A DNA stretch of 64,000 nt, taken from the NCBI GenBank assembly GCA_963789265.1, contig CAWBKB010000005.1, forward strand, positions 416,001 to 480,000, written 5' to 3'. Positions 4,175 through 43,852 of this stretch are shown piece after piece. Positions within the stretch are counted from its first letter, which is position 1. Every line of letters begins with the position of its first letter. Under the pieces are notes generated by a model, which had not been told where the DNA came from, did not search any database, and saw only the letters and a program-made list of their open reading frames with translations. The translations under genes and the position numbers were made by a program. The DNA comes from an uncultured delta proteobacterium. GTDB taxonomy: Bacteria > Desulfobacterota > Desulfomonilia > Desulfomonilales > Desulfomonilaceae.

Positions 4175-4423
4175 TTACTCCATTTGTGAACTCAACTCGG
4201 CTAAAGTGTATCCCACCCGCACAACAGCCCCCACCGGAACGATTTGGGTTAAGAAGCCCTCGCCGTCGGAGACCACGTCGTAAGCGGCCTTTCGCGTTTC
4301 AACAACGCACAGTTGATCGCCGAGAGAGACCCACTCGCCTGAGTTCTTGTACCACTTGCGGACTATAGCCGGAAGATCCCTTGTCGAAAACATCGGCATC
4401 TTCACAAGGTGACGTTTGCTCAT
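4175..4423 (-). CDS. Stand-alone lipoyl/biotinyl attachment domain protein
   Basis: 82 aa: VKMP...KWYK..GEWV..GDQLCVVETRKA...GFL..I..VGAVVRVG. Confidence 0.75.
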   Translation of the reverse strand: MSKRHLVKMPMFSTRDLPAIVRKWYKNSGEWVSLGDQLCVVETRKAAYDVVSDGEGFLTQIVPVGAVVRVGYTLAELSSQME

Positions 4424-4957
4424 GGATTTCTCTCCCAGAGAGAAGGTGTTTGTCTCTTACTCTGGTCGAACGTCGATACTTCAAAAAGGCTCTTTTCGAG
4501 AACTATTTGATGGAGCCTGAGGTGTACCGTTCCTTAATGTAATCCAAATGGACCCACCTCGTCTTGGCTTAAGCGTCCAATTCGGCGGAGTTGACCCTCC
4601 GCCAGAGTGTCACACGTGAACGCGGCATCTAGCAATTGTCGTGCCAAAAACTTTATTAACCGAGTAGGAATTTGGATAACGGCGGACAGGCATGTCGTTA
4701 GATGCTCTACGGGAAGGAGATGGACTCTCGGGCCTGTTGAGATCGTCCCTCGAAACGAGAAACAGTATCGCATCAGATTCAAACCGAATTGACGGAACCT
4801 TTGTTCAAAACCAGGGGATTTTCGTGATTCATGGATAGTGAGACCGTTGGGGTATTGTTCCCCACCCGTTGAAACAGTTCGGTGTGATGCCCCGCCACTC
4901 ACCCCCCTATAGCCCGATTTCCCCGTCCGTGCGGTAGCATGCCGGGGCCGCGACCCC

Positions 4958-5659
4958 GACATCATCGTGAATGCTCGTCGCATCAACAGCGGCTTGATGC
5001 CTCGACTTCAGCCCAATGCCGAGGGAAGGAACGATTTCTATTTCATCGAGAAGACGGAGCCGGAAGTAGCGCTCCGAATAATTTTGGATTTCGTCGGCAG
5101 TAGAATCAGAAACGCGTTCGGATTCGATCCGATTGACGAGGTTCATATCCTGACTCCGATGAATCGGGGCTTGGTTGGAACAACCAACCTCAATGTCGAG
5201 CTTCAGAAGGCTCTCAATCCGAGAGAGGACGGGGTAACGAGGGGCGGCAGGAACTTCCGGTTCGATGACAAGGTGATGCAGATCAGGAACAACTATGACA
5301 AAGAGGTCTTCAACGGGGATATTGGGCGAATTATTCGGATTGAGACGGAAATGCAGGAGCTGACGATCACGTTCGATGGGCGATCCGTGGTCTACGATTA
5401 CTCAGACCTGGACGAGTTGGTCCTCGCCTACGCTGTCTCAGTCCACAAGGCGCAGGGCTCCGAATACCCTTGCGTGGTGATTCCCCTCCTGACTCAGCAC
5501 TATATCCTGCTGCAACGGAACCTGTTATACACTGCCATCACGAGAGGAAAGAGACTGGTCATCGTGGTGGGGAGCAAGAAGGCTTTGGCTATTGCGGTCA
5601 AGAATGACAAGACCCAGAAGAGGTTCACGTGGCTGAGGAATCGGCTACGCCCCTTGTAA
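4958..5659 (+). pseudogene. recD2: C-terminal fragment of a RecD2-like SF1 helicase
   Basis: IIVNARRIN, DKVMQIRNNYDKEVFNGDIG, LAYAVSVHKAQGSEY, RNLLYTAITRGK. No N-terminal or Walker A region recognisable upstream. Confidence 0.8.
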
Positions 5660-5943
5660 TAGTCCTTGTCCAATCAAAGGATTTATTGAACTCTGAGAGG
5701 CGCATTGTACGAATCGGTCGGCAAATTATCAGCCAGAAAGTTCCTTCGGCACGGGCTACAAGAAGGGTCTCATGATCAAGCTCACACGATCTTGGGCTGG
5801 GCACCAACTGGCTTTCATAGAATACCTTGTGGTATTCTCTCGGACCGTCGGCGCGGTAAGGTCGGAAAGGTTGATAGCCTTTCTCCCGATCACGTGCAAA
5901 GGGTCGAAAAGTTTCCGCGGACGGCCAGAAAATGGCGGCAAGA

Positions 5944-7215
5944 ATGGCTATATCCAAAGTTGACTATCTCAACGATAAGCTCGCTAAGATTTTCAAGATG
6001 GGGTGCGAGTCGGACGGAAGCTTTGCGAATCGTCGTGTAATTATTGGTTCTGGAAAACTCGCCTTTTTACTCTGTGATCAAACCATTGATGCCTATGAAG
6101 ATGTTGTGAAGACTCTGTTGGCGGACGAAGACTGGAGTTCTCGTTTTTCAGAGAAGTTCATCGAGGAAGGCTTGAACCGAATTCTGTTGACGATGACCGA
6201 AGAAATGACCTCAGCCAATCTCAAAATACATGTGACTCATCTCATTGAAGATTTGCAAAGTTACTCAAAAGAGCACGTTGTCTATATTCCCCTGACGGGG
6301 GTACAAATTGAGGGCGAACCAGTCCGCATTGGAAATGTCACTATCAAGGAAATAACAGATGATGAATTGGTTTCAATATTAGAGAGGTGGGAGAGGCATT
6401 TTCCTGAAGTATCAGGGGGCTCAATTGAGAGACAAAACAATATCAGGAGCACCCAGCGGAACATAGTTGAAGCTTTGCGCGGGACTACCGTTACAGAATT
6501 CCATGTAATTTCTGAACCTATTAGAGCAAGAGAAAGGGCCTTAGAAGAAACTGGGCGAATCCTAGATATTCTGCGCTACTCCATTCCAGCTTTGTACCCA
6601 CCTGATAGTGATGTGAAGATCGGTATAATGGGTGATCTGTTTAAAGGGCCTGTAACGCAGCTAGTTCTTGCAACTGATTCCACCGGCCTGAACAAAAACC
6701 AGGAATGGGTGGGTCCGTTACAACCTCTGCGCCTGACACCAGAAAACCGTGAACACATGCTTTCTATGGGAGTTTTTCGCTTAAGTGGCATATTGCAGAA
6801 GCGGTATAGTGATGTGAATGATTTTGAGCGAGCCTTACTTCGTGGGTTACACTGGTATGCAAATGCTCAAACCCGAAATGATCCTGCAGACCGATTACGT
6901 GATTTGGTTACGTGCTTGGAAGTATACCTTACTCCGAAAGATGGAAATCCGATAGGCACGGCAGTTGCTGAGGCAGCGGCAATAATTGTCGCGAGTGATC
7001 TTCAAGACCGAAAACGCATCAAGAAAAAAATAAAGGAATTATACAGCTCAAGAAGCGCAGTGTCGCATGGTGGCCGAACATCGGTTTTGAATCAGGACGT
7101 GCATGATCTTGGGCAAATTGCCGGGCAGCTTACAATGATTCTTATCAACAGATCACATGAGTTCACGACTAGGAAAGACTTACTTGAATGGGTTGAGAAC
7201 CAGAAGCTCGGCTGA
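5944..7215 (+). CDS. HEPN domain protein (ApeA-like architecture), putative RNase/defence effector
   Basis: C-terminal ALLRGLHWY...LVTCLEVYL...KELYSSRSAVSHG with R-x4-H at 7051-7068; visibly more AT-rich than core genes. Confidence 0.75.
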   Translation: MAISKVDYLNDKLAKIFKMGCESDGSFANRRVIIGSGKLAFLLCDQTIDAYEDVVKTLLADEDWSSRFSEKFIEEGLNRILLTMTEEMTSANLKIHVTHLIEDLQSYSKEHVVYIPLTGVQIEGEPVRIGNVTIKEITDDELVSILERWERHFPEVSGGSIERQNNIRSTQRNIVEALRGTTVTEFHVISEPIRARERALEETGRILDILRYSIPALYPPDSDVKIGIMGDLFKGPVTQLVLATDSTGLNKNQEWVGPLQPLRLTPENREHMLSMGVFRLSGILQKRYSDVNDFERALLRGLHWYANAQTRNDPADRLRDLVTCLEVYLTPKDGNPIGTAVAEAAAIIVASDLQDRKRIKKKIKELYSSRSAVSHGGRTSVLNQDVHDLGQIAGQLTMILINRSHEFTTRKDLLEWVENQKLG

Positions 7216-7374
7216 TCGATTTTCGATGATTTCATTCCGAGATGATTCGCTCCGGGGTTCCAGGGAAAACAAGAAGTTTACTAAGCAGTGTTGCCATTCG
7301 GGTTTAGACAAATCATGTAGAGAATCATCGTAAGTTGCAAAACGACATACTCAGTTTTGGAAATGGAGGTTGTC

Positions 7375-8127
7375 ATGAGAGAGAGGGTTTCCATCGAAAA
7401 GATCCCCAAATCAGAAAAATTAACTAATTATCTCAAGAAGGTACGTGATGTCACCGATCACCCAATAGAGGTCGAAAATATTCCCAATGATGAGTCGGTC
7501 GGGCCTCCATTTTCAAGCAGAAAAGAAAACAACACGTTTATAATACAAGTTCATGTAACGGCTTTCCGACCCCAAGAAGAATTTTTTGAACAGGGAGTTG
7601 CCCATGAGGCAACGCACGATAGGCTGTCTGTGGAAGGTTACGAACGGGCAGATTTTCTGAGAGAACCGGAAGAAGTTGAGAGATTTTGCGTGAATTGGCT
7701 ATTCACAATGATTGAGGACATTCCTGTATATGAACGGCTGCACAGTGCTGGTTTCCCCGTGTGTGATTTACCGTCACTTAAAGCAACAGAGAAATTCATG
7801 CAATTACTGCATCAGTATGATCCTGCTGTACCACCTCCAATGTCTCGCAGCTTTCCGCAAGATATTCGGCTGCAAAGAATGATAAGAGTAACTCGGCTTG
7901 TCCTAGGGGCTGAGATGGTCCGATATTCAAGTTCTGGGGATCCGTGCCTTGAGTTGATGACAGAGTATTTGAGCCTGCACGGGGCGAAATTGCCTGAAGA
8001 CGCAAAATGGGCTAAGTGCATAACAGAGATCGTGCGATCTCATGGTGTAGATACTCCTGAAAGGTTTCGGACCACTGTAAACCTAGTAGCCCAAGAATGG
8101 AAATTAGAGGACCTCATTCAGTATTAA
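7375..8127 (+). CDS. Hypothetical protein with a HExxH zinc-metallopeptidase-like motif
   Basis: VAHEATH at ~7597-7617, later MIED; GGAGG RBS before the ATG at 7375. Confidence 0.6.
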   Translation: MRERVSIEKIPKSEKLTNYLKKVRDVTDHPIEVENIPNDESVGPPFSSRKENNTFIIQVHVTAFRPQEEFFEQGVAHEATHDRLSVEGYERADFLREPEEVERFCVNWLFTMIEDIPVYERLHSAGFPVCDLPSLKATEKFMQLLHQYDPAVPPPMSRSFPQDIRLQRMIRVTRLVLGAEMVRYSSSGDPCLELMTEYLSLHGAKLPEDAKWAKCITEIVRSHGVDTPERFRTTVNLVAQEWKLEDLIQY

Positions 8128-8207
8128 CGCCCCAATTGCCTCACATCAATCTTCGGAGCGACCTGAAGTAAAAAGCCTTTTGATACGTTGGAAGCCGCCC
8201 CGGATCC

Positions 8208-8295
8208 GTGGCGTCATTTTGGCGTCGCTTTTGACGCCACCATAGTGCTTGATAGTGATCGATAGTGACTTAAATCTTCAAGGAAATCGTGGCGT
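8208..8295. repeat. Short direct and inverted repeats next to the island end, resembling integrase arm sites
   Basis: GTGGCGTCA (8208-8216) inverted with TGACGCCAC (8232-8240); TGGCGT at 8209, 8220 and 8290; ATAGTG at 8242, 8252 and 8262. Confidence 0.5.
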
Positions 8296-8321
8296 AGCCG
8301 GTTGTAGAGTGTTGAGTGATG

Positions 8322-8362
8322 TGCCGTGTGAAGGCAGTGCTCTCCCCCTGAGCTACCCGCCC
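8322..8362 (-). pseudogene. 5' half of tRNA-Val(CAC); 3' half absent
   Basis: Minus strand reads GGGCGGGTAGCTCAGGGGGAGAGCACTGCC-TTCACAC-GGCA, then unrelated sequence with no T-loop or acceptor 3' strand. Confidence 0.85.
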
Positions 8363-8373
8363 AGTAGTCTCTG

Positions 8374-8403
8374 AAACTACACTTGGATAGCACCTTTTGT
8401 CAA
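8374..8403 (-). promoter_or_regulatory. Putative sigma70 promoter of the tRNA-Val fragment
   Basis: TTGACA (8403-8398), 18 bp spacer, TAGTTT (8379-8374), about 12 bp upstream of the tRNA 5' end. Confidence 0.55.
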
Positions 8404-8515
8404 GACGGAAGATCAGTGTATAAATTATCCTTGCTTAATCAATTCAGTATATGATATTATTAAATAAAATGATGAAGTACCCTTTCTGACTCGAACTTGC
8501 TCCAGGAAGAAACTC

Positions 8516-8881
8516 ATGAGAAAAAGCTGCTTGATCCTCGGTCTCTGTGCTGTGTTTTTGGCTGTATGCCTGTGCGCTTGGGCCGCCCCGCCCATTGGAG
8601 TCAAAGTCATACCGGAAAGCGTTGATTGGCCCCTGGTAAGACCCGCGCCCTATAGGTCTCCCAAAAAAGAGCTCCGCCAAGAAGACATTTACGAGCTGAC
8701 TTTCGGAGTCCGAAGATGGTTGTCCGGCATCGAACCTCCTGACGGGATAAACTTCCAAAATACGCTTTACGAGTCATACAAATGGTTGGATCTCTATGGA
8801 TGTTATGGGGTCCTGGGAAACGGGGAGGACGTATTCACCAGGCAAGGGGCCAGGTTCAGACGGCTCGATCGGGGCCGCTGA
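8516..8881 (+). CDS. Hypothetical secreted protein
   Basis: 121 aa with signal peptide MRKSCLILGLCAVFLAVCLCAWA; AGGA RBS. Confidence 0.55.
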   Translation: MRKSCLILGLCAVFLAVCLCAWAAPPIGVKVIPESVDWPLVRPAPYRSPKKELRQEDIYELTFGVRRWLSGIEPPDGINFQNTLYESYKWLDLYGCYGVLGNGEDVFTRQGARFRRLDRGR

Positions 8882-11562
8882 CCGATTCCGTCGCGAGGAC
8901 ATGACCCAGGAATTCCAGCAGCTTTTCTCTGTGGGCAGCATCTGTAACCGCCCCCAAGTATTTTCTTGATGCCCGGTATTCCAAGATGCCCATCTCAAAA
9001 AAACGAGTCAAGGCATTGCCCACGGTGATTGAAGACAGAGACGGCAAAGGGCGCTCATCATCAGGACCACGCAGATCCTGAGCGATTTTCATCATCTTCT
9101 TCATGACTATTTTTTGTGAGACACCGCCTTGCTCTCCGGTTTCTGCGGCTAGAAGCGCCAGATAGTATACCTCAAGCATATCCCACATAATTCCGCTCAA
9201 ACACTCCAACGGCTCTCGGTTCACAACGGAAATTTGGTCTTCAGCCTCTCGCCGCACCCATCCTTGGTCGAGGAACCAACCTAAAGTTTCTGTCCAACAC
9301 TGTATCGTCATCCGTTAAAGGATTAATTATCAGCTCCTTCGAGCATATTTGTCTCAGGAGTTGAAATTCTCCGCGTTTGCCCGGGTCAATATTCACAGGG
9401 CCGGCGCCACCCCGAGTCAAGAGTATCGAAAGAAGGGATGCGGACCAGAGATAATTGACCAGGGAATTCTTGTAGAATCCCAGGTTGGCTCTTTTTTGCT
9501 CCTCAATGAGATAAACGATTTCAGCGTCGGGTGCCGAGGAAGCCTCAACGGCCACAAATCCGCGGTTCCTGAACAGTTCGAGAGCTTTTTCCAAGGCAGC
9601 TTGCCGATCGGCAAGGCTTTCCGCAAATTCAAATCCGCCTCTTCCGAGTACTTCAGACAAGTATTCGACTGCCTTGAAAAAGTATCCTCGGCTCACTTTA
9701 TGCGATCCCATACAGACCAGTGCGGCTGCGGCCAGATCTATCGGCGTAACAACCCCCACGCGCACAATCCCGTGCGTAAGATAATACGCGAAATCGTGCA
9801 GCAACCTGCGGTTTTCTTTCAGGGATGTCTGGGCAGGGGCAGACCGTACGGCTCGTTCGCGGCAAAAGGCGCGAAACGAGACAGGCTCATGAAAGCGAAC
9901 GTAAACCTTGCCAAACTTCCGTTTGAGGATCTCTCGGGCACGGATCACCGACAGAAAGCTCTCCTTCTCTTTGTCCCGGCCTCGCAACTCTCGCAGATAA
10001 GCCTTTTCCTCGGGTACTTGATCGTAGCCGATGAAGGTGGGGACAAAGGTCAAGTCCTCGACAGCCTCCTCTTCAACAGCTTGCAACAGGAAAGCGAGCA
10101 TTCCCACCCTGGGGGGCATGAGTTTCCCGGTCCGACTTCTTCCCCCTTCAATATAGAAGTTAATGTTCACCTTCTCTCTTACCAGGGTCTTCACATACGC
10201 TGCGAACACATGGGTGTAAAGCCCCAGTCCCTTGAAAGAGCGTCTCAGAAAAAAGGCCCCTGCTTTGCGCAGCAGCGTGCCGACCGGCCAGAAAGAAAGG
10301 TTCTTGCCCGCGCCCATATAAGGAACAGCCATCTGGTTGACAAAGGTCAGGTATCCGATGAGCAGATAATCGAAATGGCTCTTATGCGAAGAGACAATGA
10401 TCAGAGATCCTTGTGCATTTATCCCTTTGAGGGTGGAAAAAGCAGAGGGCTTGAGATCTATCCCGTCGAAGACTTTGGAAAACAGCCATTTCAGGAGGTA
10501 GTAAAGAAAATGTAAAGCTTGAATATGCTGATCCGCAGCGATTTCTTCAATATAGGATTCTGCTTGTTTCCGAAGCTTCTTTTCCGTCGTGCCTTCTCCC
10601 GAAGCTTTTTCCGTGACCATCCCGTGAAGTCGGGGATCCTGAAGCACACGTTCCTTGATCTCGGTCCGAGACAACCTTTCAGGTCCTCGGCTCACCCTAA
10701 TCCTGTCATTAATTCTCTTTATGAGCTTTTGGCGAACATCGAATGGGATTTCTTCAAGGGATTTGCCCGAGCCGAACTCCTCGAATTCCCCTACAAGATT
10801 GATCGGCTCACCTACCATGAACTCAGGCACGGTCCACTTCCGGAAAGCGATCAAGAGCCGTTTCAGGGGACCCGGCCTGTCAGGGTCACCGAGGAAACTT
10901 TCCCAGAATGGGCGGATAGCGGGCCTGGGGGTTCTGTCATAAAGGATCGTCATGGGCACTAGCACGATGGGAGCTGCCATGCGCCCTTGGAGATCGACCA
11001 GGATCTGAATTGGGTCGAGGTCCGGATGGACGTATCGCGTGCGCGAGGTTTTCTCGTCCACCAGGAACATCACGCCCAACCCTTTTGCCTCAAGGATTTC
11101 CTTGACCACATTCTCGTCGACCGCGACAGGACGCCTGCGTTCATGTATAATTCCGGCGAGCCTCGCTTTCCAAACGCTTACAAATTTGCCCAGGGAGCCG
11201 GCGCTCCACGCGGACATCCCGAATACAAAGGCAGGTAACGGCAGTCCGAGTTCCACAAAACGCATTCTGAGGAATTGCAGATCGTAAACGCTTCGATATT
11301 TCAGAGCGTAGACGAGCAGGCCGTCTCGGGCAAGATCCTGAAGTCTCTGCACATCCAACGGGTCGATCCGGACGTTGGCCGAAAGAACGGAAACAAGTTT
11401 CCTCATTAGCCATGAGGGCTCTTCATCGAGAACCCCGGCAACATGGTGAAAGCGTCCGTTGTGAAGGAACAAGGGGACTACCCGGCTCATGGGGAACAGC
11501 GTGACCTCTCTTTGTTTATAGGTGATGCTCCGCGCCGGCATTGACAATCCCCGGCGATCCAC
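8856..11562 (-). CDS. plsB: Glycerol-3-phosphate acyltransferase (PlsB-like); +1 frameshift near 9288
   Basis: HKSHFD (HxxxxD), GAFFLRR and FYIEGGRSRTG motifs. ORFs 9241-11562 and 8856-9311 join on removal of one A (...VLDRTLGWF...). Confidence 0.85.
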
Positions 11563-12271: not shown

Positions 12272-12508
12272 GGAATCAGACCGGGCGATTCTAATAGGAT
12301 CAGGAATGGAGTAAAAAGTCCGGTCGGCATCGAGTAGGAGAGTGTTGACGGGGCAGGAAAGTCTCAGTTATCGAACAAGGGGCAGGTTTTTCAAGAAAAG
12401 GGAAACTTTTGCTTGTTGTTTTTGCTTCCTGCTAGTGATAACATTCAAAAGATTATACGATTTGCCCGGTTGCACCCCGGCAAATTTGAGATAAAGGAGG
12501 TCTTTCGT

Positions 12509-12826
12509 ATGCCTACGCTGGAGATCGAAGGTAAAACCTTTGAAGTTGATGAAGACGGGTTTCTCCAAGACCCCAACCTGTGGAACGAGGAAGTTGCGGC
12601 CCTTTTCGCCAAGACCGAAGGAATCCAGGAGATGACGGACGAGCACTGGAAAGTTGTCCATTACCTCAGAAATTATTACTTGGAATTCAACATCGCTCCC
12701 ATGATTCGGAAGGTCTGCAAGGACACCGGCTTCAAACTGAAGAAGATCTACGAACTGTTTCCCTCCGGGCCGGCTAAGGGAGCTTGTAAGGTGGCGGGGC
12801 TACCGAAGCCTACAGGTTGCGTTTAA
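12509..12826 (+). CDS. dsrC: Dissimilatory sulfite reductase co-substrate DsrC (TusE/DsrC family)
   Basis: 105 aa, VDEDGFL...ELFPSGPAKGACKVAGLPKPTGCV with both C-terminal cysteines; AAGGAGG RBS. Confidence 0.92.
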   Translation: MPTLEIEGKTFEVDEDGFLQDPNLWNEEVAALFAKTEGIQEMTDEHWKVVHYLRNYYLEFNIAPMIRKVCKDTGFKLKKIYELFPSGPAKGACKVAGLPKPTGCV

Positions 12827-36461: not shown

Positions 36462-36656
36462 TCACTTTTCTTTACGTTCTTTCAGCCGCTCTTCCACTGC
36501 GGCCAGTTCCTTTTTTAATTGGTCACGGTAATTTTCCAGCCACTCTTCTTCCTCTTTTGCAGTGTAGAAATGCCGGAACGAATGACCGCCGCCACCACAG
36601 CCACACGTGCATCCTCCCATCCCTGCAAATCTATGATGTGATCCTGGATGACACAT
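36462..36656 (-). CDS. Small Cys/His-rich coiled-coil protein (DUF5320-like)
   Basis: MCHPGSHH...CTCGC...EEEEWLENYRDQLKKELAAVEERLKE; GAGG RBS. Confidence 0.75.
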   Translation of the reverse strand: MCHPGSHHRFAGMGGCTCGCGGGGHSFRHFYTAKEEEEWLENYRDQLKKELAAVEERLKERKEK

Positions 36657-36865: not shown

Positions 36866-37294
36866 TTATTTCTCTTTCCCCACCTTTTCCATTTGGGTCC
36901 GCACCTTTTTCAACTCGTCCTCAAGTTCCTGCTCCAACCGCCGCAGGTACGCCAGTTCTTCTTCCCTTGATTTAACTTCCTCGCCCATAGTCCGGTCCGG
37001 CATCCGACAACTCCCCTCACAACCGCAACGGCAAACGTTAGAGATAACTTCGCCGCATTGATCAAGCGCGGCCTGGTCCACCTCGTAGGGTATCCAGAAG
37101 CCTTTGCGCTGATTCCGAACAAGTCCGGCGTGTCTGAGGATCTTGAGATGCTGGGATACCGCAGACGGGGTTATGCCAAGCGTTTGTGCTATTTCATTCA
37201 CGTACAGGGGTCCCCTTTGCTTCAGGAGATCAATGATCCTGATCCGAGATTCAACACCAAGGACTTTGAACAGTTCCGCTTCCTTGCGACACAT
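36866..37294 (-). CDS. ArsR/SmtB regulator with a C-terminal Cys cluster and coiled coil
   Basis: FKVLG..SRIRII..L...SAVSQHLKILRHAGLV...RKG..IPY; tail CRCGCEGSC...EEELAYLRRLEQELEDEL. Confidence 0.88.
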   Translation of the reverse strand: MCRKEAELFKVLGVESRIRIIDLLKQRGPLYVNEIAQTLGITPSAVSQHLKILRHAGLVRNQRKGFWIPYEVDQAALDQCGEVISNVCRCGCEGSCRMPDRTMGEEVKSREEELAYLRRLEQELEDELKKVRTQMEKVGKEK

Positions 37295-37480: not shown

Positions 37481-37816
37481 TTGCCCGTCAAAGAACAAGA
37501 CAAACCTCTCGATCTCGAACAAAACCTGGGCATCGCAGCCTTTGTGAGCAAGAGCCTTTCGGATGAGAACCGCCTCCGAATCCTTTTGTCGTTGCGCAAC
37601 GGCAGGAAGACCGTCTCTACCATAGTGGAGGAGATGAATCTTTCTCAACCCCTGGTTTCCCATCATCTGAAGGAGCTGAGACGGTGCCTCCTGGTGAACG
37701 TGGAGCGCAAGGGCTTGTTCGTGTACTACGAGATCGCGGACGAGAGAATCATCGAAATAGTTTGGCAACTGGCGTATCTGGCAGCGGATCTGCTCTCGCA
37801 GAGAGATACCTTCTAG
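37481..37816 (+). CDS. ArsR/SmtB family repressor heading the selenoprotein operon
   Basis: KSLSDENRLRIL...SQPLVSHHLKELRR..LV..ERKGLFVYY; AAGGAG RBS, TTG start. Confidence 0.9.
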   Translation: MPVKEQDKPLDLEQNLGIAAFVSKSLSDENRLRILLSLRNGRKTVSTIVEEMNLSQPLVSHHLKELRRCLLVNVERKGLFVYYEIADERIIEIVWQLAYLAADLLSQRDTF

Positions 37817-37834
37817 CTTTTGGAGTGGAATCAC

Positions 37835-38290
37835 ATGAATAAGGGAAGAATTCAGGACCTTGTCGAGTCAATGGATCCAATTGACGCAGCCAAGGAGATG
37901 GCTGACGCAGCGAAGAAACTCTTCTCTCTTTTAGGAGAAGAAGCACTTCGCGATTTTCTCATCAATCTGATCGGAAACGGGGGCCAGGACAAGATTACCG
38001 GCCTGGTCCACTTATGACTGGCTACATGCATGGACGAAGGTGTCGATCCAAAAGCAATGTGCCAGAGTTTAGTGGAAAAAATAAGTCAATCCGAGCAACT
38101 GCGTTCGGTGACGGACCCGCAGATTCTTATTCTGTTTGAGGACTGGCTGGAAGAACTGGAAAAGGAGGCAGTGAGTGTGATTGAGCGTGGAGGCCCCACT
38201 GCCCCCGAAGACCTGTCCAGAGAGTTGGGTTTATCACAATCCGGCTCGATGTTCCTCATTACGAAGCTCAAAAGAGACGGCAAGATATAG
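37835..38290 (+). CDS. tsoA: LULAxC-motif selenoprotein (TsoA-like), 151 aa, Sec at codon 61 (TGA 38015-38017)
   Basis: ORFs 37820-38017 and 38030-38290 are in frame across TGA: GLVHL-U-LATCMDEGVDP. SECIS-like hairpin follows. Family name recalled, not searched. Confidence 0.85.
38018..38065 (+). promoter_or_regulatory. Putative bacterial SECIS element for tsoA
   Basis: Stems CTGGC/GCCAG, ACAT/ATGT, TGGA/TCCA, CGA/TCG; apical loop AGGTG 20 nt after UGA. Confidence 0.75.
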
Positions 38291-38328: not shown

Positions 38329-40089
38329 ATGGCAATCGAGGTGAACTGGAAAAGACTTTGGCTCCCGCTCTTGGCGATCACGGTAACGGTGGGAGTTCTC
38401 TGGTTCACAAACAGAGAGGTGACCCCAAGGGAACCAAAGTGGAACGACGTGGTAGTTGAAGCCAGGGAAGGCGGCTACCGGCTCATAAATACCGATGGAC
38501 TCAGGCAGCGGTACGAAGCAGATCCCCGGAGCATTTTGTTGGTGGATGCCCGTCAGGACTGGGAATTTGCAATGGGCCACATAAAAGGCGCGGTCAATTT
38601 CCCAATGGAACCTACTGCGTGGTCGAGATGGCGGAAAAGGGGCAAACTCGCGCAGGCGCTTGGTCCCGACAAGAATCGCTTCATCGTATTTTACTGAGCA
38701 GGACTTACCTGAGTCCGTAGCGACTCTGCCGCTCGTGTAGCGGTGCAACTAGGTTACAAGAATGTATATCGTGACGCAAAGGGGTTTCCAGAATGGAAGG
38801 CTGCCGGTCTTCCCATTGAAAGCATTCCTGCGGATCGGACAAGATCCGCATCTGTACCTGAAAACGCCGGGCCACTATACGGCTGGGCAATGCTCTGGAC
38901 CTTATTGGGTGTCTTCGGAGGCGGACTGGCACTCAACCTTACGCCGTGCGTTTATCCCTTAATTCCTATAACCGTCTCCTACTTTGGGGGCAGGAGCGGT
39001 CAGAGACGCGGAAAATTGGCAGTTCACGGTTTGCTGTATCTGGGTGGTCTGTCCGTGACCAACTCAGTGTTAGGGGTAGCGGCGGCTCTCACGGGAAGCC
39101 TGATGGGAGCGGCGCTTCAGAACCCCGTAGTGTTGGTGGTTGTCGCCGGTGTTCTGGTTTTCTTTGCCACAAGCCTCTTCGGATTCTGGGAGCTGCAACT
39201 TCCCCAGAATCTTGCAAGGGCAGCATCCAAGTCGTACGCAGGATACTTTGGTACGCTGTTCATGGGCCTGACTCTCGGTGTAGTTGCAGCTCCGTGTCTG
39301 GGACCTTTCGTCCTGGGGTTGCTTACTTGGGTGGCGAGTATGGGCAGCCCTTGGTTGGGTTTTCTCATCTTCTTCACGCTCAGCCTTGGGTTGGGAGTGC
39401 CGCTCTTTATCCTGGCGATGTTCTCAGGCAGCCTGGAAAAGCTCCCCGGTTCGGGTGAGTGGATGCTGTGGGTGAGAAAACTGATGGGCTGGGTGTTGAT
39501 CGGAATGGCTGCGTATTTTGTCAAACCTCTGTTACCGTCCTCGGCAGGTGTGTTTGTATTGGCGGCAGTAGCCCTAGCAGCAGGGTTGCACCTGGGGTGG
39601 ATCGACGGTACTCAAGCCGGTTTCAAAGCATTCGGCGTGCTGAGAAACGTGGTCGGTATAGCCAGTGTAGTCTTGGGGGCTTTTCTGCTCGGTTCCTGGC
39701 TAATGGTAGGACCTGGAGTCTCATGGCGACCGTATTCCGATGAAGCACTCGAGCAGGCCCTAAAGTCTAACAAGCCGGTAATCGTAGATTTTTCCGCAAC
39801 GTGGTGTACGCCATGCCGTGAACTCGAAGATATTACGTTTCGTGATCCGCAAGTGGTGAAACAGGCTAAAGACGGCTTCGTCATGGTCAAGGTTGACCTG
39901 ACCAAAAAGGGGAACCCGCTCTACGAAAAACTGGTCGCGCTATATGCGATCAAAGGGGTCCCGACGGTGGTTTTCTTCGACGGTCATGGCAGAGAACGTG
40001 CCGATCTGCGCCTGGTTGATTTCATCCCCGCTGATCAATTCTTGAGCAGAATGACTCAGGCAATGCAATCATGGAACTCGGGTTCATGA
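38329..40089 (+). CDS. tsoB: Rhodanese-DsbD(beta)-thioredoxin fusion selenoprotein (TsoB-like), 586 aa, Sec at codons 123 and 128
   Basis: In-frame read-through of TGA 38695 and TGA 38710 gives IVFY-U-AGLT-U-VRSDSAARVAVQLGYKNVY...GFPEWKAAGLP, a complete rhodanese. Then LTPCVYP, AAPCLGP and WCTPC. Family name recalled. Confidence 0.88.
38711..38757 (+). promoter_or_regulatory. Two staggered putative SECIS hairpins for tsoB
   Basis: GAGTC-CGTAGC-GACTC (38711-38726; loop 18 nt after the first UGA) and GCCGCT-CGTGT-AGCGGT (38728-38744; loop 21 nt after the second UGA) with lower stem GTAGC/GTTAC. Confidence 0.6.
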
Positions 40090-40117: not shown

Positions 40118-40393
40118 ATGTTGAAAGTCCGCTTTTTTATGAATGAACCCAATGGCAAGCCTTGAAGACACTTCAAGGAAATGGCGTCCAGGTTGGGCGC
40201 AGAATACCCCATCGACATTGAAGTTACGTCAAAGCCACGCGCTGAATACCGAACCGATGAATGGGCCGAGACAGAACTTCCCTGCGCTCCGGCAATCATG
40301 ATCGGCGAAGACGTTGTGGCAGAAGGGTCGGATGTTACCGAAGAGAAGGTTGTTGCCGAGATCAGAAAACAACTGAGTATGCCCCCAATTTAA
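40118..40393 (+). CDS. tsoC: NEPxGxxU-motif thioredoxin-like selenoprotein (TsoC-like), Sec at codon 16 (TGA 40163-40165)
   Basis: Strong RBS (GGAGGGAGG) before ATG 40118; MLKVRFFMNEPNGKP-U-RHFKEM is in frame with ORF 40181-40393; LPCAPAIMIG cis-Pro-like loop. Family name recalled. Confidence 0.85.
40172..40204 (+). promoter_or_regulatory. Putative SECIS element for tsoC
   Basis: GCGTCC-AGGTT-GGGCGC (40184-40200), loop 24 nt after UGA; loop begins AGGT like the tsoA hairpin. Confidence 0.65.
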
Positions 40394-40484: not shown

Positions 40485-41337
40485 ATGAATATGCTCATCA
40501 TAGAGAATGAGCCAATAATAAGGCTCGTTTTTTTCCTGGGAATATTTTTGGCTGTGGCGTTGGGAGAGCTCGCCGCCCCTCGCCGCCGCCTTCTCACATC
40601 CAAGGCTTCTCGCTGGTTCGCTAACATAGCGATAGTCATCATAAATACTGCCGTTGTAAGATTTATGTTTCCTGTCGCAGCCGTAGGCATGGCAGTAATT
40701 GCGGCTCAGAAGCATTGGGGACTCTTTAACAACCTCGCGATGACGTTACTGGGTCGCTGTCGTCTTGTCGGTGGTCATTCTTGATTTCGTAATTTACCTG
40801 CAGCATGTCTTGTTCCATGCAATTCCGATCTTTTTCCGATTGCACATGATGCACCACGCGGACTTAGACTTTGATCTGACTACAGGCACTCGTTTTCACC
40901 CAATCGAAATCATCCTTTCCATGCTGGTTAAAGTCGCAGCCGTTGTCCTCATCGGAGCGCCCGCAGTGGCGGTCATCATCTTTGAAATGATCCTGAACGC
41001 TACATCTACATTTAATCACGGTAATGTGCTTCTCCCTCTGGGGATAGATCGAGTGTTGCGGCTACTCGTGGTCACCCCTGATATGCACCACGTTCATCAC
41101 TCTGTTTTTCCTTTTGAGACGAACAGCAACTTCGGCTTCAATTTTCCTTGGTGGGATCGCCTCATGGGAACTTACCGAGACCAGCCAAGATCGGGCCACG
41201 TTGAGATGGCAATAGGGTTGAATCAGTTCCGAGACCCCTCGCGCCTCACACTACTAAGAATATTGGCCCTCCCGTTTGTCGGCACAACCGGCAACTATCC
41301 TATCAATCGCCGCGGCGTTTCCGGTGGAGATTCTTGA
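40485..41337 (+). CDS. Sterol desaturase/fatty-acid hydroxylase family membrane protein; +1 frameshift near 40746
   Basis: His boxes HVLFH, HMMHH, FNHGN, HHVHH; NSNFG...WDRLMGTY. The two ORFs join as NLAMTYWVAVVLSVV. Confidence 0.85.
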
Positions 41338-41404: not shown

Positions 41405-42572
41405 CTAACTCTCTCTCAGCGCGTCAACAATCTTCAGGCGAGCCGCTCTCCATGCCGGCAGCAATCCGCCCATGAAGCCCATTGCAATAGCGAAAGCCAT
41501 TGTGGAACCGGCAATGGACGGGGTCAGTTCGAATCCGAAGGCCAACTCAGAAAAGGTGCTCCAGTTCATTGTTGAAATGGTCAAAAATTGAAGTAGCGAA
41601 CCGCAAGCCACTCCTGCTGTGCCTCCGATCAAGCCGAGGAGGACAGACTCGGCCAAAAAGGCTACCAGGATGTTTCTTCTCCTGAATCCAAGCGCCCTCA
41701 GGGTGCCGATTTCGCCGGTGCGATTGGCTACCGCGGAGTACATTGTCACCATGGCCCCGAGTATGGCGCCTATGCTGAAAAACATCGTCGTGGCAAGTCC
41801 CAATATCCGGATAAACTTGGCCATCACTTCAGACTGTTCTTTGTAAAATGCGATCTCCCGCTTAACTTGTACCGGAGAGACGCGGATCTTTTTCCAGGCG
41901 ATTTTTCAAGTCCTCGAACGCCTTTCGTCCGGGCACTTTCAGTATTACGTCAGAATAAGCGGTCCTTCGGAACGCGGACAGCAACTGATCGACATCTCCC
42001 CACACCTCGGAATTAAAAGCTGTTTTGCCCGCGTCAAATACACCCACGACGTTCCAATCAGAAAGAGCGAAATGCAAGGTTTGGCCAAGTGAGCCGCCTG
42101 TGACGGTCTCCGCGATGCTTTTGCCGGCGATTACTTCTCGGGAACCCGGCCGAAAAGTCCGTCCCGCAATCAATTTCACTTGAGGCCTGAGATCCATGGC
42201 CTTCATCCCAACTCCTCGCACGACTACATTTGTCGGCTTGCCCGTCTTCTTTTTCGGCACGGTTACCAACACAAGGGCCTCTTTGGACGCGATGGGCCCG
42301 CCGCGCGCGTCTTCGGCTATTTCAGGCTGAATTTCTATAACCGCGGCTGAATCGCGGTCGATGACACTGGATACCTCTGTTTGCGCCGAGCCCCTCAGGA
42401 CTATGGCATTACCGGGAGAACCCGTGTCGATCAGAGTTTGTTGTAATCCCTGGGCTAACATCAGCACCGCAGCAAAGACAAAGGTGACAAGAGCCATGCC
42501 TCCCGCGGTGAGAATACTGGTCCATTTTCTTGTCCAGAGATTGCGGAAACTGTAGCTAAAAGGTATGGCCAT
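41405..42572 (-). CDS. ABC transporter permease (MacB/FtsX-like); +1 frameshift near 41873
   Basis: YSFRNLW, periplasmic core, RTGEIGTLRALGF, GGLLPAWRAARLKIVDALRE. The ORFs join as RLSVQVKREIAFY. Confidence 0.85.
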
Positions 42573-43646: not shown

Positions 43647-43852
43647 GAGGCTGTCTCAAAACTATATTGATGACCAGAATCGTGCCACGATGCAGCCCGG
43701 CGCTGAAGCACCGGTCTACTTTCTATCGCCCCGATGGGGCTCAAACGCAAGAGTCCCGGAGGGACAAGGGATAGTAGCCCGGTAATTCATTACCGGGAAA
43801 GTGGGGCATCGTGCCACGAATCTCGTTCATGCCTCCCTTTTGAGACAGCCTC
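43647..43852. mobile_element. MITE (206 bp), 15-bp TIR, 4-bp TSD CATG, inserted in a REP palindrome
   Basis: GAGGCTGTCTCAAAA...TTTTGAGACAGCCTC flanked by CATG; the empty site rebuilds as GTAGAGGCACGGCATGCCGTGCCTCTAC. Confidence 0.85.

Follow-up and report, generated by a model that had tools for sequence, protein, structure and literature searches.

A rhodanese–DsbD fusion of the TsoB selenoprotein family with two predicted selenocysteines in a Desulfomonile-related bacterium

Among the described systems closest to the protein studied here are DsbD, which in its canonical form consists of alpha, beta and gamma domains, and the enzymes of the rhodanese fold. DsbD of E. coli is made with a signal peptide that is cleaved. 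In the rhodanese fold the length of a loop separates sulfurtransferases from phosphatases; GlpE, PspE and Sud are examples of rhodanese-fold enzymes with a single Cys. In this work we analyzed tsoB, a gene at positions 38329-40089 of a 64,000-nt stretch of DNA (hereafter the window; assembly GCA_963789265.1, contig CAWBKB010000005.1, positions 416,001 to 480,000 of the forward strand) from an uncultured delta proteobacterium, a host whose genome is related to Desulfomonile (Desulfobacterota), and we find that its product is a member of a selenoprotein family that has already been named and curated. The family, TsoB, is listed in a table of a review with the motif UxxxxU and two selenocysteine (Sec) residues (PMC13188914, 2026, which cites Haft and Tolstoy 2025), and the text of the same review, citing the same source, expands Tso as "three selenoprotein operon" (PMC13188914); Haft and Tolstoy 2025 is also cited in the BSepDB paper (PMC13326102). 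No function is stated for the TsoB family in the table, section 5 or the operon paragraph of the review (PMC13188914), and no fusion was treated in a small sample of the literature on rhodanese together with DsbD.

Under translation table 11 the gene is called as two open reading frames (ORFs) in one frame of the + strand, 38329-38697 (122 aa) and 38743-40089 (448 aa), and the only interruptions of the frame between these halves are two TGA codons, at 38695-38697 and 38710-38712. With TGA read as Sec (U), 586 codons are open over 38329-40089 (+ strand) with the terminal TGA at 40087-40089, the two internal codons become residues 123 and 128, and the active-site loop reads FY-U-AGLT-U-VRS. The predicted protein then has Cys or Sec at six positions in total (123, 128, 207, 323, 493 and 496). 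The features of the gene are the following:

38329..40089, + strand: tsoB, rhodanese/DsbD-fusion selenoprotein of 586 residues (NF045694, Pfam, AlphaFold2 model).
38347..38412, + strand: N-terminal membrane helix, probable signal anchor, residues 7-28 (model helix; hydropathy peak at residues 10-28; K8 and R9).
38440..38850, + strand: rhodanese domain, residues ~38-174, probably periplasmic (PF00581; structures 6mxv, 3d1p and 2hhg).
38695..38697, + strand: first TGA, predicted Sec123, at the catalytic-Cys position of rhodaneses (Cys of FYC in 6mxv, 3d1p and 2hhg; Cys in four of six homologues).
38710..38712, + strand: second TGA, predicted Sec128, the second residue of U-x4-U, in a two-residue loop insertion (Cys in four of six homologues; TGA in two related loci, L070 and L012).
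38728..38744, + strand: hairpin GCCGCU-CGUGU-AGCGGU resembling a bacterial selenocysteine insertion sequence (bSECIS), with 6 bp and a 5-nt loop that has G second.
38884..39702, + strand: DsbD beta-type transmembrane domain with eight helices, residues 186-458 (PF02683; match to CcdA, 5vkv).
39724..40080, + strand: DsbD gamma-like thioredoxin domain, residues 466-584 (solved DsbD gamma structures are the best matches).

The best 120 whole-protein matches comprised 114 C-terminal pieces shorter than 500 residues and six full-length homologues. In four of these six, Cys occupies both TGA positions (FYCTGQTCVRS, FYCADLSCSRS, FYCAGPDCVRS and FYCADLACSRS); of the remaining two, one has Gly and Arg at these positions and the other a gap. 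Matches to the N-terminal half were cut at the complementary point: 118 of the best 120 stop just before U123 (116 of them after FY, two after VY or YY), and of the other two, P0219 reads FYCTGLT and stops at the U128 site and one is cut earlier. Split pieces are found in named relatives, Desulfomonile tiedjei including strain DSM 6799 (entries P0139 and P0053, the latter 399 aa long and C-terminal), and the window's own database entries carry the same cut. We saw the double TGA directly in a stand-alone rhodanese at locus L070 (U-AGLA-U-VRS), which shares 52.6% identity with the N-terminal part of TsoB, and the rhodanese of locus L012 has Cys at the first position and TGA at the second (CRSFA-U-LRS). 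The first-position TGA codon itself was seen in the window and in L070, and elsewhere as a conserved stop, and for close relatives (68–91% identical) the second TGA is deduced from the window, L070 and the family motif; the pattern of our locus scan was built from ...VFY[CG], so that Sec forms with TGA after FY lie outside its reach. Because TGA ends eight of the 23 family-supported ORFs in the window, genome-wide reassignment of this codon is ruled out. On sequence grounds, both UGA codons are confirmed as predicted selenocysteine codons at positions where homologues have Cys. The alignment with Cys homologues was one of the checks proposed in an earlier note made from the letters of this DNA, and the U-x4-U pair that the note had read held both in translation, the frame being broken by nothing other than the two TGA codons, and in this alignment.

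Scored with the curated TsoB model NF045694, the protein reached 995.6 bits against a cut-off of 805, with residues 10-578 covering profile positions 3-571 of 572. The score, the UxxxxU motif, the three-domain architecture and the TsoR, TsoA and TsoC neighbors all place it in TsoB, confirming that the gene belongs to an already known, curated family and that neither its architecture nor its UxxxxU motif is new. The earlier note had called two Sec five codons apart unusual; the novelty that this implied did not stand, as the arrangement is already curated as TsoB (NF045694) and appears in the review table (PMC13188914). The other genes of the unit are:

37481..37816, + strand: tsoR, ArsR/SmtB-type regulator (NF045707 'ArsR/SmtB-type metalloregulator TsoR', 150.3 bits vs 115; no in-frame TGA).
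37820..38290, + strand: tsoA, LULAxC-motif selenoprotein (read-through translation; NF045695, 213.1 bits vs 170).
40118..40393, + strand: tsoC, NEPxGxxU-motif selenoprotein (NEPNGKPU; NF045708, 136.2 bits vs 45).

The in-frame TGA of tsoA lies at 38015-38017 within the motif LULATC, with a hairpin at 38031-38050 (loop AGGUG) 20 nt after the UGA; its start is uncertain (TTG 37820 or ATG 37835). That of tsoC lies at 40163-40165 and is followed after 25 nt by a hairpin at 40184-40200 (GCGUCCA-GGU-UGGGCGC). Like tsoB, these two genes are cut when ORFs are called with table 11. Since tsoB is flanked by tsoR, tsoA and tsoC, the locus is, as predicted from sequence, a complete four-gene tsoR-tsoA-tsoB-tsoC unit in which three genes encode selenoproteins and the Sec codons number four. 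Beyond tsoR and divergent from the tso genes, a second ArsR/SmtB-family regulator is encoded at 36866..37294 (- strand; NF033788, 84.6 bits, cut-off 55), which scores only 34.4 bits with the TsoR model and has a Cys-rich stretch (CRCGCEGSC) and a coiled-coil-like tail at its C-terminus; we list it as a neighbor of the unit only. Adjoining it is a 64-aa ORF (36462-36656, - strand), rich in Cys, Gly and His (CTCGCGGGGH), also with a coiled-coil-like tail.

We then compared the three parts of TsoB with known domains. The N-terminal part matches the Pfam rhodanese family (PF00581) at residues 68-159 (E = 2.9e-15; 57.0 bits vs a cut-off of 22.2), a match that spans both TGA codons. U123 aligns with the catalytic Cys of the rhodaneses 6mxv, 3d1p and 2hhg (YFYC, FYCA and FYCAG, respectively), and in the HMMER alignments all three have a two-residue gap opposite -LT- of CAGLTCVRS, the TsoB loop being two residues longer; the canonical rhodanese loop (catalytic Cys to conserved Arg/Ser) is short, and that of TsoB is not of this kind. 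The middle part matches DsbD_TM (PF02683) at residues 189-401 (E = 1.2e-41), and its cysteines lie in P-C motifs, TPC207 (38947-38949) and APC323 (39295-39297), both of which are invariant in one of our alignments (A1), while in another (A7) C323 is invariant and C207 is at least 90% conserved. The C-terminal part matches Thioredoxin_7 (PF13899) at residues 466-551, with the active site W492-C493-T-P-C496 (C493-C496 codons at 39805-39816); in sequence it is nearest to the solved DsbD gamma domain 4ip1 (E = 4.7e-16), and its fold matches DsbD gamma 1uc7, 1vrs and 2fwg with template-modelling scores of 0.80–0.84.

The Pfam scan gave no match in TsoB to DsbD_N (PF11412), the immunoglobulin-like alpha domain of canonical DsbD. 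Ten of the 12 DsbD relatives scanned in the same way carry DsbD_N at about residues 40-160; the remaining two are a rhodanese fusion and a protein that lacks an N-terminal domain. Only one of the 150 best 50%-identity representatives (P0243) covers the rhodanese, the others aligning from about residue 137, and the nearest rhodanese-less DsbD relatives are 37–58% identical over beta-gamma. The canonical DsbD model NF001419 gives TsoB 226.8 bits, below its cut-off of 330. Since DsbD_N is replaced and this cut-off is missed, TsoB would be DsbD-like in its working and yet is not canonical. TsoB is a DsbD beta-gamma module in which the alpha domain (DsbD_N) is replaced by a membrane-anchored rhodanese. 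The structural interpretation given in the earlier note is thereby supported: it had read an N-terminal transmembrane anchor (present as model helix 7-28), a rhodanese active-site loop mirroring the Cys form (borne out by the C-x4-C homologues and the catalytic-Cys alignment), a DsbD beta domain with both P-C motifs, a C-terminal WCTPC thioredoxin (residues 492-496, closest to DsbD gamma) and the replacement of alpha by rhodanese (DsbD_N stands there in the ten relatives mentioned).

To locate these domains relative to the membrane we used an AlphaFold2 model of TsoB (73-sequence alignment; mean predicted local distance difference test score 89.1, predicted template-modelling score 0.73), as the earlier note had suggested predicting the topology. 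The model contains an N-terminal helix (7-28), a rhodanese fold (38-174), eight membrane helices (186-458), two of which are kinked at the P-C motifs, and a thioredoxin fold (466-584); the helices were counted from this model, a Kyte-Doolittle scan having missed the less hydrophobic ones. Since the number of helices between them is even, the model places both soluble domains, rhodanese and thioredoxin, on one side of the membrane. Basic residues occur at the N-terminus (K8, R9) and in the loop between TM1 and TM2 (GGRSGQRRGK), suggesting that the cytoplasm is on the side opposite the soluble domains and that these face the periplasm.

For the hairpin downstream of the second TGA we used the bSECIS consensus of the review, that is, a loop of 3–9 nt, a stem of 4–16 bp, G in the first two loop positions, 16–37 nt from UGA to loop and a minimum free energy of ≤ -7.5 kcal/mol (PMC13188914, section 5). 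The tsoB hairpin, 21 nt after the second UGA and 36 nt after the first and with a local fold of -9.8 kcal/mol, agrees with the consensus in every respect for both UGAs. A codon alignment of seven sequences (those of the window, L070 and L012, of L002, a locus that has Gly and Arg at the Sec positions, and of three Cys forms) has 41 of 42 cells paired and changes on both sides in three of the six pairs; the structure was derived from one of the seven. The covariation score is 0.556 vs a shuffled mean of 0.158 and was reached by 1 of 500 shuffles; controls in which the hairpin was slid along had at most 66.7% of cells paired. These results support, without proving, the assignment of 38728-38744 as the predicted SECIS of tsoB. 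A separate mini-SECIS for the first UGA was considered at 38701-38716 and rejected as unsupported: this hairpin starts 3 nt after that codon and has its loop, ACCU without any G, at a distance of 9 nt, and L070 does not preserve it.

Relatives of the rhodanese domain were examined in 80 loci. A MauE-family (MauE/DoxX-like) membrane protein with CGCFG is encoded directly upstream of the rhodanese in 63 of them (all within L005-L080; e.g., L027, 9272-9775), and YedF-like genes occur in 13. The MauE-rhodanese gene pair is widespread in metagenome-assembled genomes (MAGs) of Syntrophales, Geobacter-like and other Desulfobacterota, often near DUF2064, CCG/Fe-S, class-V aminotransferase and YedF genes. 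The L070 rhodanese (4853-5356) is membrane-anchored and stand-alone, with no DsbD module, and lies between a YedF and a MauE-family gene, followed by a Cys-form CGFTKC rhodanese (neighbors at 4203-4808, 5375-5917 and 5921-6433). The MAG of L070 also carries a Cys-form fusion, L001. At L012 (9998-11023) the Cys-x4-TGA rhodanese is fused to an AhpC/TSA thioredoxin-fold domain and is directly preceded by genes for a PhsA-like molybdopterin subunit, an iron-sulfur (PhsB-like) subunit and a cytochrome b subunit (6315-9993). The C-x4-C rhodanese clade is thus linked in three ways, by fusion to DsbD beta-gamma (L001-L004), by fusion to AhpC/TSA (L012) and by a MauE partner (63 of 80 loci). This wiring to dithiol-disulfide partners, together with a second chalcogen residue at fixed spacing, points to a pair that goes through a two-electron redox cycle and not to a lone catalytic Cys.

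Taken as a whole, these data make it probable, in our judgment, that the gene is the tsoB of a complete Tso operon and that its product would act as a DsbD-type conduit to a periplasmic Sec pair. Reducing equivalents would enter from a thioredoxin-type donor in the cytoplasm, possibly the small cytoplasmic selenoproteins of the operon, cross the membrane by way of Cys207/Cys323 and pass to Cys493/Cys496 of the gamma-like domain, which would reduce a Sec123-Sec128 diselenide, or an adduct bound to Sec, on the periplasmic rhodanese. Once reduced, the selenol pair may act on a chalcogen or metalloid species in the periplasm, with polysulfide, thiosulfate and compounds of selenium or of another metalloid as candidates. 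Indirect hints at such a substrate are the PhsA/PhsB/cytochrome b-like operon ahead of L012, the YedF genes near L070 and other relatives, and the ArsR/SmtB type of TsoR. This regulator would control the expression of tso, and a single bSECIS hairpin 3' of the second UGA would most likely serve both UGA codons. The earlier note had proposed a diselenide-capable sulfurtransferase or reductase that acts outside the cytoplasm and is wired to cytoplasmic reductant, an idea that fits the predicted protein.

Several observations weigh against the reading of tsoB as part of a complete operon encoding a conduit to a periplasmic Sec pair. At L001, L003 and L004 the Cys-form fusion stands without tsoR, tsoA and tsoC as neighbors, so the link of TsoB to its operon partners is not obligatory. 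Locus L002 (8517-11746) has tsoR-tsoA-tsoB with no tsoC downstream, and there tsoA retains its TGA, but in tsoB the two Sec codons are replaced by GGA (Gly) and CGA (Arg), each one base from TGA, ahead of an intact hairpin; the Sec pair can therefore be lost. Genes for selA, selB, selD and tRNA-Sec were not found within the 64-kb window. The tsoB hairpin is not specific to Sec forms, being no less well preserved in L002 and in the Cys-form loci L001 and L003, while L004 shows a single mismatch; it is also partly forced by the DSAARVAV codons, four of its six pairs being largely fixed by Ala-Ala-Arg-Val-Ala. The first UGA, at 36 nt, sits at the edge of the 16–37 nt spacing range. The hints about a substrate come from distant relatives (24–52% identity) and not from TsoB loci. 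The periplasmic position of the rhodanese and thioredoxin-like domains, as in DsbD, is what the model and the charge distribution suggest.

Among the other explanations, the one that survives best is that the TsoB rhodanese is a sulfur or selenium transferase in which Sec123 carries a persulfide- or perselenide-type adduct and Sec128 resolves or protects it, the DsbD module rescuing an over-oxidised site; its role would be the trafficking of periplasmic sulfane sulfur or selenium with no net reduction. The position of U123, exactly that of the rhodanese catalytic Cys, speaks for such a carrier, as do the thiosulfate/polysulfide-reductase-like operon and YedF genes that adjoin relatives, and there is a weak sequence match (E = 0.0077) to Wolinella Sud (1qxn), a periplasmic polysulfide-sulfur transferase. 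However, a second chalcogen residue is conserved at fixed spacing and the clade is repeatedly wired to DsbD beta-gamma, AhpC/TSA-fold and MauE partners, and we regard a carrier as possible but on balance unlikely, adding that carrier and reductase are mutually compatible roles.

A further explanation concerns decoding: the second UGA alone, 21 nt from the hairpin, would be read efficiently as Sec, while at the first, translation would mostly terminate, giving mainly a 122-aa fragment, or use a near-cognate tRNA, so that little full-length TsoB would be made, in which position 123 might be taken by some residue other than Sec. The marginal spacing of the first UGA is what this would predict, and the small hairpin 3 nt after it has no loop G and is not kept in L070; C-x4-U variants also exist, in L012 and P0219. 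Yet 118 of 120 N-terminal pieces share a stop at the first position, the curated motif is UxxxxU with two Sec (PMC13188914), and the catalytic position is where Sec should matter most, which makes this explanation improbable. That tsoB is a broken gene, either a pseudogene or a pair of genes for a truncated rhodanese and a DsbD without alpha, arising from nonsense mutations or sequencing error, is hardly credible even though table-11 callers divide both it and its relatives and two nearby window genes look frameshifted, so that the assembly may hold errors, because both stops are TGA, in frame and Cys-aligned with intact domains on either side, the same split recurs in more than 100 90%-identity clusters, the curated selenoprotein model fits end to end, and tsoA and tsoC, the genes on either side, likewise contain an in-frame TGA with a hairpin after it.

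Returning to the periplasmic Sec pair fed through a DsbD-type conduit, a more specific version of it can be put forward only tentatively, namely that one bSECIS may program both UGAs, 15 nt apart, and that TsoB may be a periplasmic diselenide reductase with TsoC and/or TsoA as donors instead of thioredoxin. If one hairpin does serve both codons, SelB would be able to supply two Sec residues from the same element at different spacings, and if TsoB is such a reductase, it would reduce or mobilise polysulfide, thiosulfate or selenium by DsbD-type transmembrane electron transfer.

Other features of the window lie outside the tso unit. Downstream, a fatty-acid/ornithine-lipid hydroxylase-like gene (40485-41337) is represented by two overlapping ORFs in different frames, 40485-40784 and 40765-41337, and a MacB/FtsX-type permease (41405-42572, - strand) is split into 41862-42572 and 41405-41827, out of frame with each other; both splits may reflect true frameshifts or indels in the assembly. 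An Acido-Lenti-1 RNA (Rfam RF01687; 41.7 bits vs a gathering threshold of 37) is predicted at 43752-43797 (- strand) between lipB and a thiolase gene. At 12413-12823 (+ strand) the window encodes a sulfur relay protein of the TusE/DsrC/DsvC family (TIGR03342, 128 bits), which fits a sulfur-metabolising Desulfobacterota host.

Reading the raw sequence thus recovered a real membrane protein with two predicted Sec residues that standard gene callers split in two. Of interest is a potentially diselenide-capable rhodanese at the site of DsbD alpha, adjoined by a metalloregulator-type repressor and with relatives beside thiosulfate/polysulfide-reductase-like and YedF genes. TsoB may therefore offer a tractable entry to periplasmic chalcogen and metalloid redox chemistry in anaerobes, and tsoB a test case for the decoding of two closely spaced UGA codons with a single SECIS element.

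With respect to known systems, the window protein is a member of TsoB (NF045694), from which we found no difference. The Cys-form fusions (P0039, P0041, P0042 and P0044; loci L001, L003 and L004) are 56–62% identical to it over the full length, have the same domains and score 853–929 bits with the TsoB model; they differ in having Cys for Sec, with C-x4-C at the two positions. The stand-alone membrane-anchored rhodaneses with VFYCGF[VT]KCTRSHNGAMW share the C-x4-C-x-R-S loop and an N-terminal hydrophobic segment with TsoB and are 32–42% identical to its residues 44-166, but are about 175 aa long and have no DsbD module; all 75 that we saw are Cys forms. Single-Cys rhodaneses and Cdc25/Acr2-type enzymes have in common with TsoB the rhodanese fold and a catalytic residue that opens the loop after the FY strand, whereas in the rhodaneses 6mxv, 3d1p and 2hhg this loop is two residues shorter and lacks the second redox residue. 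Canonical DsbD of the E. coli type (alpha-beta-gamma) shares with TsoB the P-C cysteines of beta, the CxxC of gamma and, as it appears, the topology; it differs in having DsbD_N where TsoB has a rhodanese with a Sec pair, and a cleaved signal peptide where TsoB probably has a signal anchor.

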